This document shows, one piece after another, positions 10,851 through 15,106 of a stretch of 34,100 bases of DNA; the first letter of the stretch is position 1; every line of letters begins with the position of its first letter. This DNA comes from Dehalococcoidales bacterium (GTDB taxonomy: Bacteria; Chloroflexota; Dehalococcoidia; Dehalococcoidales; RBG-16-60-22). The notes beneath the pieces are model-generated. The model was not told the origin of the DNA. It searched no databases and worked only from the letters and a program-made list of their open reading frames with translations. Where the stretch lies: NCBI GenBank assembly GCA_046760155.1, contig JBHIDQ010000003.1, positions 1 through 34,100 on the forward strand, given 5' to 3'. The translations under genes were made by a program, and so were the position numbers.

Positions 10851-11279
10851 ATGTTTTTCGGCGAATTTAACTATAAGATTGACGAAAAAGGTAGACTACC
10901 GCTGCCACCCCGGTTCCGAAAGGAACTGAAAGATGGCGTGGTATTATCGCCGGGGGTGGAGAGGTGCATTAACGTCTACCCATTAGCTGAGTGGAAGAAG
11001 CTGGCGGGCACCCTTACTGGCGGTCCACTGACGCCCAAGGAGAAACTGAGAAGGCTAAATCGGGCGATTTTTGCTACTGCCTTTAGTGTCAATATGGATG
11101 GTCAGGGTAGGGTGGCACTACCGGTACCATTGCGAGAGTATGCTGAGATTGTTGAGGACGCAGTTATCGCTGGAGCTAATACCTATCTTGAAATCTGGAA
11201 CCAGGTTCTCTGGGAAGAGGAGAAGGCGATTAGTCAGGAACAGGCCTGGCAAATTATCGAAAGCTTAGAGAGGCACTGA
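10851..11279 (+). CDS. mraZ: Division/cell wall cluster transcriptional regulator MraZ
   Basis: MFFGEF, IDEKGRL and MDGQGRV (two DxxGR repeats), LEIW. Confidence 0.97.
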
Positions 11280-12334
11280 TGAGTCGAAGCATGCCAACCT
11301 CGAACCATATCCCGGTTCTGCTCGAAGAGACGATGCAGGCACTGGCGGTTCAACCTGGGGGGCGCTATATTGATTGCACCCTAGGGGGAGGTGGACATGC
11401 CCTCGCCATTTTAGAGCGTAGTTCTCCTGGCGGTCAATTATTAGGTATTGATGCCGACCCAGAAGCAATAAAAGCCGCTAGGACAAGACTCGAAGCCTAC
11501 CAAAATTCAACCCTTTTCGTGAATGAAAACTTTGTTAATTTACAGGCGATCTGTATTAAGTATGATTTCTTTCCAGTACACGGCATCTTGTTTGACCTGG
11601 GTCTCTCCTCTCTGCAGCTCAATGGGAATGGACGTGGTTTTAGTTTTCAGCATGAGGCCCCTTTAGATATGCGACTTAATCCCAGCCAGGATATTGCCGC
11701 CGCCGATATCGTGAATAACTCATCTGAGGCTGAACTAGCTTACCTGATCAGAACCTATGGTGAAGAAAGTTATAGCCGCCGCATCGCGCGGCACATTGTG
11801 CGTGAACGTCCCATAAAATCCACGCTTCATTTGGCTCGGACAATAGAACAGGCGGTCAGCCGGAGAAGGGGTAAAATCCATCCCGCGACCAAAACCTTTC
11901 AGGCATTAAGGATTGCGGTGAATCGGGAACTGGAGAATCTTGAAGCGGCGCTGAAACAGGCGATTGATCTCCTTGGTTTTGAAGGTAGGCTGGTAGTGAT
12001 TAGTTACCATTCTCTTGAAGACCGCATCGTGAAACGGTTCCTGCAGCAAGAAGCTAAGGACTGCATTTGTCCCCCAGGTACCCCGGTTTGTATTTGTGGA
12101 CATAAGGCTCGCTTAAGGTTAATCAATAAGCGGGTGATTACTCCTTCCGAGTGGGAGATTGAACTTAATCCACGTAGCCGTAGTGCTCGATTGAGGGCAG
12201 CAGAGCGCGTTATGACTGAGGATGATTGTGATGCTACTGCTGAGGTGTCCGGTTTTTTCGCTGAGATTGAGGCCAGGGCTTGGAGAAGGCCGGCTTTGTT
12301 GAAAAAGCTCGAGATGGTGTTTCTAGCCTCCTAG
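11279..12334 (+). CDS. rsmH: 16S rRNA m4C1402 methyltransferase RsmH with a ~40-aa C-terminal extension
   Basis: [49 protein letters not shown] and [10 protein letters not shown]. Confidence 0.97.
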
Positions 12335-12775
12335 ATTGGATGGGAATTAAACCAAGAACTTAAAAAGGCAGAATTTTAGGAAGGGGACTGAATGAAAGAA
12401 AGAGATATGATGGCGGGTGAGATTAGAACTACCAAGCCGTACATGACTCTTGCTGACTTAAAATTGAAAGTGGCGGAGCATATTATTGCTCAAGCCGATT
12501 GTTATCAGCCTGATGAGGTGCAGAGTATTTTAGCCGAAACTAAGATTGGTGTCTGGAGAAGGGCAGATTTGTGGGAGAAACTCAGAATCGTCTTTTCCAT
12601 GTCCTAGACTAGTTCGGTAATTTTAGGATTTAAAAGAGGAGGTTCTGAAAATGTAAAAAGTAAACCGAACTTAAGAGGGTAGGATTTTCTTGAAGAGGAG
12701 GATTAAATGAAAAATCGGACAATAGCTTCGATTGATGTTGGTACCACCAAGGTTTGTACCACTATCGCTGATATG
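12185..12775 (+). repeat. Diverged tandem duplication of the rsmH 3' end, spacer and ftsA 5' end (copy 1 ~12185-12460, copy 2 ~12461-12775)
   Basis: Gapless protein alignments on both sides. The spacers share TAAACC(AA)GAACTTAA..GG.AG.ATTTT, both upstream ORFs contain TGGAGAAGG and end TCCTAGA, and both downstream ORFs begin AATGAAA. Confidence 0.8.
12392..12607 (+). CDS. 71-aa chimeric microprotein (FtsA N-terminal peptide + RsmH tail) at the ftsL position
   Basis: Purine-rich SD (GGAAGGGG) before the ATG; intact frame; homologous to both neighbouring genes; no TM helix. Confidence 0.65.
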   Translation: MKERDMMAGEIRTTKPYMTLADLKLKVAEHIIAQADCYQPDEVQSILAETKIGVWRRADLWEKLRIVFSMS

Positions 12776-13921
12776 AATGATGGGGGTGCTTTGCGAGTTG
12801 TTGGTGTTGGCATTGCCCCGTCGGTTGGGTTACACAAAGGCTTGGTGGTCAATATTAATGAAGCCAGAGAGTCAATTCGTGAGTCAGTAAGAAAGGCGGA
12901 ACAGTCGAGCAACTACCGGATAGAGTCAGCTTATGTCGGTGTTACCGGGAGGCATGTCGCTTCGTTAAATAACCGAGGAGTAGTAGCGATTACGCGGAAT
13001 GACCGTGTGGTGCGCTCTGATGATTTAAAGCGTGTCCTTACTGCTGCCCAGAGTGTCAAAATTCCCAGCGACCGAAAGCTACTCCATGTTATTCCTCGGG
13101 CTTATGCTGTTGATGGTCAAGCCAAAGTCAAAAACCCGGTGGGAATGCACGGCTTCCGGCTTGATGTAGAGACACATGTCATCACCGCGGCGGTAACTTC
13201 AATCCAGAATCTGGTCAAGTGTATTCGTAGCATTGGCATTGATATTGAAGACCTCGTCCTCGAACCTTTAGCCAGCAGTGAAGCAATATTAACCACAGAT
13301 GAGAAGGAAGTTGGTGTTATCTTGGCTGATATCGGTGGTGGGACGACCGATATTGCTGTTTTCAAAGACGGCAGTATCTGGCATACCTCCATTCTACCGG
13401 TAGCTGGTTATCAACTTACCAGAGATGTTTCCATTGGACTGGGATTGCCATTTGATGTCGCTGAGGAAATGAAGAAGCGATATGGTAGCGTAATGCCAGT
13501 TTATGAGACCAGGACAGAAAACAATACCGCGATATCTCAAGATGGACACGGTGTCTCCTATCAGGACCTGTGTGACATTATCCGGGCTCGAATCGAAGAA
13601 ATCATGAAACTTATCCTGCTCGAACTGCCCAGCTCAGAATATGAAACACTGGTTCCGGCTGGTTTAGTGCTTACCGGCGGCAGCTCTAATCTAGCGGGCA
13701 TCGCGACGCTGGGGCGTGAGATACTGCAACTCCCGGTTAGGGTAGGTACCCCCACCAATATGGAAGGTATTGCTGATACCCTTTGCGACCCGGCCTATGC
13801 GACCAGTGTCGGCTTGCTGCTATGGGGAGCCAAACATGAAGGTAGCCAGAACTGGCAACCCTGGAAACTTGGCACCGCAGTAAGGCGTTTAGCTTTCCGG
13901 ATTAGGAATCTGTTCCGCTAA
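12707..13921 (+). CDS. ftsA: Cell division protein FtsA
   Basis: IDVGTTK, DIGGGTTD and VLTGGSS actin-like motifs; amphipathic C-terminal helix (VRRLAFRIRNLFR); SD GAGGAGG. Confidence 0.97.
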   Translation: MKNRTIASIDVGTTKVCTTIADMNDGGALRVVGVGIAPSVGLHKGLVVNINEARESIRESVRKAEQSSNYRIESAYVGVTGRHVASLNNRGVVAITRNDRVVRSDDLKRVLTAAQSVKIPSDRKLLHVIPRAYAVDGQAKVKNPVGMHGFRLDVETHVITAAVTSIQNLVKCIRSIGIDIEDLVLEPLASSEAILTTDEKEVGVILADIGGGTTDIAVFKDGSIWHTSILPVAGYQLTRDVSIGLGLPFDVAEEMKKRYGSVMPVYETRTENNTAISQDGHGVSYQDLCDIIRARIEEIMKLILLELPSSEYETLVPAGLVLTGGSSNLAGIATLGREILQLPVRVGTPTNMEGIADTLCDPAYATSVGLLLWGAKHEGSQNWQPWKLGTAVRRLAFRIRNLFR

Positions 13922-13963: not shown

Positions 13964-15106
13964 ATGGCAAAAACAAGTTTTGTGGCTAATCCAGCCAAAA
14001 TTAAGGTCATTGGCCTTGGTGGTGGTGGCAGCAACGCGATAACCCGCATGGTCAGGGAGGAAATTCAGGGTGTGGAATTCATCGCCATGAATACTGATGC
14101 CCAAGCTCTGGCCATTACCGAAGCCCCGACCCGTATCCAACTCGGTGAGAAACTAACTAAAGGATTGGGTGTTGGTGGTGACCATACTCTAGGTCAGCGG
14201 GCCGCTGAGGAAAGCAGTGATGAGCTTAGGGAACTCGTTTCCGGGGCTGATATGGTGTTTATCACCAGTGGTATGGGTGGTGGTACCGGCACTGGAGCGG
14301 CGCCAGTAATTGCCGAAATAGCCAAGCAGAGCGGTGCCCTCACCATTGCCGTGGTCACCAAACCATTCAGCTTTGAGGGAGTCCACCGCACTCAGGTAGC
14401 CAATGAGGGTGTTACCCGCCTGTTGGGTAAAGTTGATACCCTTATCATCATTCCCAACGATCGATTACTAGGTCTCTGTGACCAGAAGACAGGCGTGGAT
14501 AGTGCCTTTAAGCTGGCCGATGATGTGCTGCGACACGGCGTTCAGGCAATTGCGGAAGTTATCACCACCCCTGGGATGATTAACCTTGACTTTGCCGATG
14601 TGAAAGCAATTATGAAGGATGCCGGTCCGGCTTGGATGTCTATTGGTACCGGGACAGGCCAGAATCGAGCCGTAGAGGCTGCCAAGCAAGCTCTGGCGAG
14701 CCCACTCTTGGATGTTTCCATTAATGGGTCAAAGGCAGTGCTCTTCAATGTGGTTGGCGGTAGTAGCCTCACCCTGTTTGAGGTTAATGAAGCCGCCGAT
14801 GTCATCAGACAAGCGGTAGACCCTGAGGCAAACATCATTTTTGGAGTGGCTCATGACCCTAGTATGGATAATGATGTCAGGATCACACTAATTGCCACTG
14901 GCTTCATTGCCAAGCTAGGACTGACCGGAGCGAGCCAGGAAGATGAACTGACGCAACTCCTCCGGGGCATCAAGAGTGAGGATGAGCTAGATGTTCCTTC
15001 ATTCCTACGTCGACCGCTCTTCAGTCATCGGCGCCAGGCGATAACTCCGGCGAGGAAACCGGTTCAACCGCCCTTGATGACTCCAGCTGCGGACTCCAGC
15101 AGTTAA
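13964..15106 (+). CDS. ftsZ: Cell division protein FtsZ
   Basis: [16 protein letters not shown] tubulin signature, INLDFADV and the conserved C-terminal peptide LDVPSFLR. Confidence 0.99.

Follow-up and report, generated by a model that had tools for sequence, protein, structure and literature searches.

Between rsmH and ftsA in a reduced division operon of a Dehalococcoidales bacterium (GCA_046760155.1, contig JBHIDQ010000003.1) lies an open reading frame (ORF) of 71 codons, and the question raised by this locus is where such a frame came from and whether it is a gene. The stretch of DNA analysed, referred to here as the window, comprises 34,100 nucleotides (nt), positions 1-34,100 of the forward strand, and carries on its + strand the gene order mraZ, rsmH, ORF, ftsA, ftsZ. 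An earlier reading made from the letters alone (the sequence-only reading) had proposed that the ORF is a chimera created by tandem duplication of the rsmH end, the spacer and the ftsA start, and the alignments, colinear repeat units and shuffled controls described below bear this proposal out. As judged by sequence comparison, the ORF at 12392-12607 is very probably a real gene of tandem-duplication origin. The features concerned are listed below, with protein lengths in amino acids (aa).

10851-11279, + strand: mraZ, first gene of the operon (Pfam MraZ, E 6.6e-30); its stop shares one base with the rsmH start.
11279-12334, + strand: rsmH, 16S rRNA C1402 N4-methyltransferase, 351 aa (Methyltransf_5 at residues 8-310, E 7e-112; TIGR00006 equivalog, E 7e-104).
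12209-12331, + strand: RsmH residues 311-351, a C-terminal extension not covered by the Pfam and TIGR models.
12185-12460, + strand: duplication unit A, made up of rsmH codons 303-351 with the stop, the 57-nt spacer at 12335-12391, and codons 1-23 of the ORF.
12378-12387, + strand: Shine-Dalgarno-like purine-rich stretch, 4 nt 5' of the ORF ATG, aligning with the ftsA ribosome-binding region 12695-12701.
12392-12607, + strand: chimeric ORF, 71 codons with ATG start; codons 1-23 from ftsA, codons 24-71 and the stop (12605-12607) from rsmH.
12461-12775, + strand: duplication unit B, made up of codons 24-71 of the ORF with the stop, the 99-nt spacer at 12608-12706, and codons 1-23 of ftsA.
12707-13921, + strand: ftsA, 404 aa (Pfam FtsA, E 2.2e-38; SHS2_FTSA, E 5.4e-27).
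13964-15106, + strand: ftsZ, last gene of the operon (Pfam Tubulin, E 1.6e-50; FtsZ_C, E 1.9e-31).

Each part of the ORF protein was found to resemble one of its two neighbours. In BLASTP comparisons, residues 24-71 aligned without gaps to RsmH residues 304-351 with 18/48 identical (E 2e-9), and residues 1-23 aligned without gaps to FtsA residues 1-23 with 9/23 identical (E 0.005). The hand counts of the sequence-only reading are therefore reproduced, the head count being the same and the 18/49 reported for the end of RsmH including one further, non-matching residue (residue 23). The RsmH segment consists of the last seven residues of the Pfam domain (8-310) together with the extension, and the ORF aligned to no other part of RsmH. 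The phosphate loop, DVGTTK in FtsA, reads EIRTTK in the ORF, so that the decay of the DxGTTK loop described earlier is legible in the translations. Both parents are complete on either side of the ORF, with full-length Pfam/TIGR matches to RsmH and FtsA.

The similarities were compared with shuffled controls, a check that had been proposed together with the original claim. The C-terminal part scored 86 against RsmH (shuffles 25.4 +/- 4.2) and the N-terminal part 43 against FtsA (shuffles 21.7 +/- 3.4), neither score being reached by any of 2000 shuffles, and the end-anchored identity of the head (ORF residues 2-23) was reached by 1/20000. On the DNA level, unit 12185-12460 scored 38 against unit 12461-12775 (shuffles 10.4 +/- 1.4; reached by 0/1000), and the two spacers gave a local score of 18 (shuffles 8.4 +/- 1.5; reached by 1/5000), in agreement with their earlier description as homologous and 42 nt apart in length (57 vs 99 nt). 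A MAFFT alignment of the two units was colinear across tail, stop, spacer, ribosome-binding region, ATG and head, which is what a tandem duplication over a gene boundary gives. The in-frame junction, expected near 12460, was located between codons 23 and 24 (12460/12461), and an uninterrupted frame leads from the ATG at 12392 across it to the stop. Tandem Repeats Finder detected nothing at the locus because the copies are too diverged, and a repeat search returned merely short seeds at offsets of 273-315 nt.

The distribution of the ORF was then followed in related genomes. A six-frame search of 41 related genomes showed eight others to carry it directly 3' of rsmH (52-62% identity), while profile searches found a short frame without internal stop in 27/110 genomes of the family and the ORF in 35/363 genomes of the order, belonging to four families. 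All 35 were extracted, 28 first and seven later, the later seven being absent from some analyses; two further hits in the order (G180 and G278, with frames of 169 and 182 aa matching positions 23-70 only) are kept outside the 35, and loci L010 and L015 were excluded from all counts. Every one of the 35 ORFs sits between rsmH and ftsA with its frame intact, as the search of relatives proposed earlier had been meant to reveal. Their lengths range over 62-74 aa, with exactly 71 aa in 22/35, and identities among orthologues are 28-89%.

The spacing of the neighbouring genes changes with the presence of the ORF. In 28 loci carrying it the rsmH-ftsA distance is 287-387 nt, compared with a spacer of 82-104 nt in 10 of 11 loci lacking it and of 210 nt in the remaining one, and this contrast is the signature of one inserted repeat unit; in relatives without the ORF, rsmH adjoins ftsA directly and the rest of the operon is alike. 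The spacer of unit B (99 nt) has the length found in non-duplicated relatives. Loci L050, L051 and L054, which belong to two other families, have a spacer of 91-102 nt before the ORF, equal to the one after it, compared with about 57 nt in the family of the window; therefore, the units began equal and about 40 nt were lost later in the window's family. A similar G-rich stretch was seen by eye, without formal count, 5' of the ORF in most of the 28 orthologues. A misassembly is excluded, since 35 assemblies made independently show this layout and the DNA identity between the copies is no more than about 55-60%. In one locus (L044, genome G101) the ORF, shortened to 63 aa, begins 3 nt past the rsmH stop in the same frame, such that one stop-codon change would fuse it to RsmH.

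The origin of the ORF was examined with trees of the duplicated and non-duplicated parts. All 28 ORF tails fell on one side of a branch from 39 RsmH tails (SH-aLRT 96.8), and this tail branch fits a single origin of the ORF tails. On a tree of the RsmH body and FtsA from 35 loci, for which the duplicated parts were omitted, four loci with truncated genes dropped and the seven later loci not included, the presence of the ORF needs three changes, two of which are probable losses nested among carriers (G056, locus L047, spacer 98 nt; G019, locus L009, spacer 104 nt). The ORF head matched the FtsA head of its own genome at p <= 0.01 in 12/35 loci and at p <= 0.05 in 17/35, the former including three loci of other families (L049, L050 and L051); in one other-family locus, a nine-residue stretch is identical to the phosphate-loop region of its own FtsA. 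Since the RsmH extension predates the ORF and has a broader distribution, the direction is from parent tail to new gene by one duplication.

Two loci showed further peculiarities. The RsmH tail of L009 has a similarity of 0.39 to ORF tails and of 0.44 to other RsmH tails, a pattern to be expected if the two repeat units had recombined, removing the ORF and producing a hybrid tail. At L049 (G285), ORF and ftsA DNA are 83% identical from -40 nt to +69 nt (83/100), compared with 60-73% in eight other fully aligned loci, which suggests a later gene conversion from ftsA in that lineage.

Selection on the ORF was estimated from the ratio of nonsynonymous to synonymous change (dN/dS), obtained with an approximate Nei-Gojobori count and pooled over eight pairs on separate tree paths. 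The pooled ratio was 0.37 (binomial p 6.8e-10), the parts derived from FtsA and from RsmH giving 0.35 and 0.38 respectively, compared with 0.77, 0.89, 0.82 and 0.99 in four off-frames of the same alignment. Over all orthologue pairs, the proportion of nonsynonymous differences (pN) was below that of synonymous differences (pS) in 377/378, with a mean pS of 0.69, near saturation. In the parent genes, dN/dS was 0.11 for the rsmH body, 0.11 for the RsmH tail (last 48 codons), 0.10 for the ftsA head and 0.09 for the rest of ftsA. Purifying selection on the ORF protein is real, though relaxed. The selection on a new gene inferred earlier is thus upheld, and all 35 copies are intact, where frameshifted relatives with dN/dS near 1 would have spoken for a relic.

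The positions under constraint in the ORF are not those of its RsmH parent. The RsmH extension, 41 residues long (311-351), is as constrained as the enzyme body; all of 39 RsmH tails have W335 and P338, and nearly all have A339 and L341 (W-x-x-P-A-L). These same positions are variable in the 35 ORFs, the W being present in 43%. On the other hand, the ORFs have a motif of their own, V-x-x-I-x-x-E-T-K-V-G, in which I46, E49 and K51 are identical in 35/35 and V43, T50, V52 and G53 are kept in 86-97% (V43, T50 and G53 each in at least 94%). Six of these seven positions vary in RsmH, where the top residue accounts for 31-59% of tails, and E49 is partly shared (69%); in the last helix, the ORF and the RsmH tail have three positions in common (L, K, F). 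This shift of constraint points to a new function and not to a redundant copy of the RsmH tail, and the ORF protein has therefore probably taken on such a function.

The extension itself is of restricted occurrence. Within the order, RsmH-length frames containing it were detected in many more families than was the ORF, and in a phylum-wide sample of 401 genomes it occurred in an RsmH-length frame in only three, all of this order, with two marginal matches in other frames. In AF2 models, RsmH residues 303-310 form the last strand of the methyltransferase fold and the extension three short helices, with pLDDT mostly below 50. Literature searches retrieved no paper describing the extension. Many RsmH tails finish with a hydrophobic residue followed by two small residues, an ending which we take to resemble ssrA-type C-terminal degradation tags.

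For the small protein, an AF2 model built from 28 sequences predicts helices at residues 20-36, 42-50 and 57-69. Neither Pfam (E <= 1) nor NCBIfam gave a match to it, FtsL (PF04999), DivIC (PF04977) and FtsA included, and no membrane segment was detected, the top 14-residue window having a mean hydrophobicity of 0.27 (Eisenberg). Rfam found nothing on the locus DNA, the best match among PDB sequences was an acyl carrier protein at E 0.44, taken as chance, and Foldseek returned no match at E <= 0.001 in the PDB. The ESM Atlas gave no feature hit, only weak structural neighbours to a poor model (small helix-turn-helix-like pieces, TM about 0.5). Co-folding of the ORF protein with RsmH scored 0.01 (mark 0.32), which is evidence neither way.

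Several identities were considered for the protein and rejected. An FtsL/DivIC analogue would be expected to match PF04999 or PF04977 and to have a membrane-spanning helix, neither of which was found. An FtsA or actin-like ATPase does not agree with only 23 FtsA-like residues, the loop EIRTTK and the lack of a Pfam FtsA match, nor does an RsmH methyltransferase with a protein in which only RsmH 304-351 is aligned and the S-adenosylmethionine-dependent domain is not carried. A helix-turn-helix reading did not fit when checked by hand against the classical spacing. A membrane-targeting helix of the MinD or FtsA anchor type was considered for both the ORF and the RsmH tail, and the hydrophobic moment spoke against it: 0.07-0.29 in the last ORF helix and 0.09-0.47 in RsmH tail windows 323-338 (0.09-0.23 in the last five), compared with 0.60-0.78 in windows 386-391 of the strongly amphipathic FtsA C-terminal helix (residues 386-404).

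Beyond the order's genomes, 216 database clusters match the family at E <= 0.001. Among the best 120 of these 216, most are 71 aa long and nearly all named ones are entered as 'hypothetical protein' from Dehalococcoidia/Chloroflexota metagenome-assembled genomes. A full hidden Markov model search of 1.84 billion proteins yielded 39 representatives at 50% identity, all of 35-137 aa; the matches being all short, there are therefore no other domain contexts from which a function could be borrowed. The longer members include P0132 (112 aa) and P0150 (137 aa); P0132 meets the profile in two stretches and may represent a further internal duplication or a fusion. No paper describing the ORF was found in literature searches, which did not cover supplementary files.

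Taken together, the best explanation as a whole is probably that of a real gene arising from one duplication and encoding a small neo-functionalised binding protein. Once, in an ancestor common to several families of wall-less Dehalococcoidia relatives, about 300 nt between rsmH codon 303 and ftsA codon 23 would have been duplicated in tandem. At the junction, copies of the ftsA ribosome-binding site, start codon and codons 1-23 would have come to stand in frame with copies of the final 48 rsmH codons and their stop, leaving both rsmH and ftsA whole. The new gene would share a transcript with mraZ, rsmH, ftsA and ftsZ, and its translation would begin from the ribosome-binding site that it inherited from ftsA. 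Its predicted product is a soluble protein of about 8 kDa, with the first 15 residues or so poorly constrained and probably disordered, followed by three helices that would descend from the last RsmH methyltransferase strand and the order-specific extension. The conserved surface would now be formed by V43, I46 and E49-T50-K51-V52-G53, in helix 2 and the next turn, and the protein may act as a small binding protein through this patch. It is this displacement of the conserved surface from W-x-x-P-A-L that argues for a neo-functionalised binding protein and not for a spare RsmH tail.

The partner of such a protein can be proposed with much less assurance. FtsA or FtsZ in this role is rather unlikely, and RsmH or the 30S subunit is a poorer candidate still, most of the probability falling to some other partner. 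A free three-helix regulator in the minimal division operon, made of the RsmH extension, expressed through ftsA-type translation signals and binding either FtsA/FtsZ or RsmH/30S and coupling ribosome maturation to division, may be entertained as a speculative and doubtful possibility; if true, it would be a bacterial counterpart of the eukaryotic microProteins whose birth event is fully reconstructable.

The genomic setting bears on these possibilities. The ORF had been said to lie at the ftsL position, which holds nominally, in that it follows rsmH; since the ftsL-to-ftsQ block was not found in the genome (assembly 87.7% complete), the position has no further meaning, and with no membrane segment the protein is no FtsL analogue. 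FtsL, DivIC, FtsW/RodA and a penicillin-binding protein transpeptidase had no match in this whole, 87.7% complete genome, in agreement with the statement in PMC10608941 that Dehalococcoidales retain only mraZ, mraW, ftsA and ftsZ, adjacent, as in Mollicutes. Homologues of rsmD and coaD come after ftsZ, where other division genes would stand. In its translation, FtsZ (13964-15106) runs about 30 residues beyond the conserved C-terminal peptide. Elsewhere in the window, ribosomal protein L19 (8827-9375, - strand) has 181 aa, of which the Pfam L19 domain takes up residues 9-110 only, leaving a C-terminal extension of about 70 residues.

The same setting suggests a divisome factor peculiar to this lineage, whose role in wall-less cells would be to bind or modulate FtsA or FtsZ. 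The ORF stands directly 5' of ftsA-ftsZ, no terminator-like site was found between the rsmH stop and ftsA, the ORF carries a copy of the ftsA translation signals, and the failure to find the usual late division genes makes extra FtsA/FtsZ partners conceivable. These arguments are, however, all drawn from gene neighbourhood, and nothing among them favours FtsA over other partners. Moreover, the FtsA-derived segment is the least conserved at depth (pN/pS over all pairs 0.71 in the head vs 0.39 in the C-terminal part) and is predicted to be disordered, the protein has neither a membrane segment nor a strongly amphipathic helix, and relatives without the ORF have the same operon. A divisome factor of this kind consequently appears rather improbable.

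If the RsmH-derived part is taken as the functional one, the ORF could be a microProtein of the plant type, that is, a free copy of the RsmH extension which adjusts C1402 methylation by binding RsmH or whatever the extension itself binds, such as the 30S subunit. That the C-terminal part is a paralogue of a strongly constrained extension (dN/dS 0.11), and that its last helix keeps the L, K and F positions in common with RsmH, would be consistent with such a role. Competition for one site is nevertheless difficult to reconcile with the loss of the RsmH-invariant W335 and P338 from the ORF and with a set of ORF-conserved positions that are variable in RsmH, which indicate an altered surface. This alternative is accordingly regarded as improbable, more so than a divisome factor.

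Very unlikely is a translated leader, an upstream ORF that sets ftsA-ftsZ expression while its peptide is itself functionless. The ORF does lie in the 5' region of ftsA, and the distance between the two varies very little (77-109 nt, median 97, n=35). A leader, on the other hand, would not keep particular residues such as I46, E49 and K51, nor would it hold down nonsynonymous change in the ORF frame only, and with the ORF stop about 97 nt from the ftsA start no stop-start coupling is to be expected.

A reverse history, in which an old small gene came first and the RsmH tail arose from it by fusion, or a recurrent independent duplication, is a highly improbable account. The direction is not proved by alignment alone, and in some genomes the identity between their own RsmH tail and their own ORF is 0.50-0.54, compared with averages of 0.27-0.41. 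The RsmH extension is, however, far more widespread than the ORF across the families of the order, the likeness takes in the end of the methyltransferase domain as well as the spacer and the FtsA head, which fusion would not explain, and recurrence is opposed by the position of all ORF tails on one branch. Finally, a neutral duplication relic still open by chance, for which the ORF's dN/dS above that of the parent genes and the two probable losses might be invoked, is hardly tenable given 35/35 intact copies over four families despite near-saturated synonymous sites, a dN/dS of 0.37, a length of 71 aa in 22/35, and identities of 28-89% that rule out assembly or binning copies of one sequence.

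Some observations nevertheless weigh against a single, selected, folded gene product. G056 and G019 are nested among carriers and yet have no ORF, so that the ORF can be lost, and the FtsA likeness of the head is indistinguishable from chance in 18/35 loci. Constraint on the ORF is three to four times looser than on its parent genes, six of the eight pairs behind that estimate belong to one genus and the count method is approximate. One antisense frame also looks constrained (dN/dS 0.52, p 4e-5); this is expected because its third codon positions coincide with those of the sense frame, and no minus-strand ORF of at least 40 aa was present in the region. The AF2 model of the protein is of moderate confidence (mean pLDDT 65.6; residues 1-14 below 50), and its ESM Atlas model is poor (pLDDT 0.47).

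Wholly new bacterial genes are rarely traceable step by step. Here, each piece of the ORF, from ribosome-binding site, start and first 23 codons to last 48 codons and stop, has an adjacent identifiable donor, and relatives display both the state before the event and an intermediate with the two spacers at their original length. The locus also adds an unnamed protein family to the minimal division operon of the wall-less Dehalococcoidia relatives, which are abundant and uncultured and about whose division machinery little is known.

Reduced mraZ-mraW-ftsA-ftsZ clusters have been reported in Dehalococcoidales/SAR202 (PMC10608941) and Mycoplasma genitalium (PMC8475190), the same setting with cell-wall genes lost, and an extra gene between mraW/rsmH and ftsA goes unmentioned in the accessible parts of these two reports. 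Small proteins derived from larger ones are known in several forms. MntS, which comes from the SitA signal peptide, is likewise a small protein of bacteria that started from a piece of a larger gene and became independent; it has an N-terminal signal-peptide origin, fewer than 50 aa and a shown partner, MntP, whereas the ORF protein is a chimera of two parents. The plant and animal microProteins are, according to PMC9638782 and PMC4807768, small single modules related to a module of a larger protein, as the C-terminal part of the ORF is homologous to the RsmH extension; they are defined there by binding or sequestering their larger relatives, and the changed surface of the ORF speaks against this.

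With regard to mechanism, new chimeric frames at duplication junctions are also described for Drosophila tandem duplications (PMC4069613), in which the chimeras are eukaryotic and mostly young segregating variants, unlike the prokaryotic operon gene kept across families described here. By analogy, the closest known mechanism is the short-junction tandem duplication of Staphylococcus aureus, which yields chimeric nusG'-'sigH and rplK'-'sigH genes (PMC3486894). In that case, as here, the parents stay intact, an in-frame chimera forms at the gene boundary with identical topology, and the downstream gene gives the ribosome-binding site, start and first codons while the upstream gene gives the rest. 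The S. aureus chimeras, like the other bacterial cases of this mechanism found in our searches, are unstable laboratory events: they were selected in the laboratory, are rare (10^-5 or less), are soon lost and re-express a near full-length SigH. The event described here, in contrast, is fixed and old, being kept across four families, with only a 48-codon tail of the upstream gene, a motif of its own and its own constraints, and is thus a natural case, maintained over a long time, of a gene born where two duplicated units meet.

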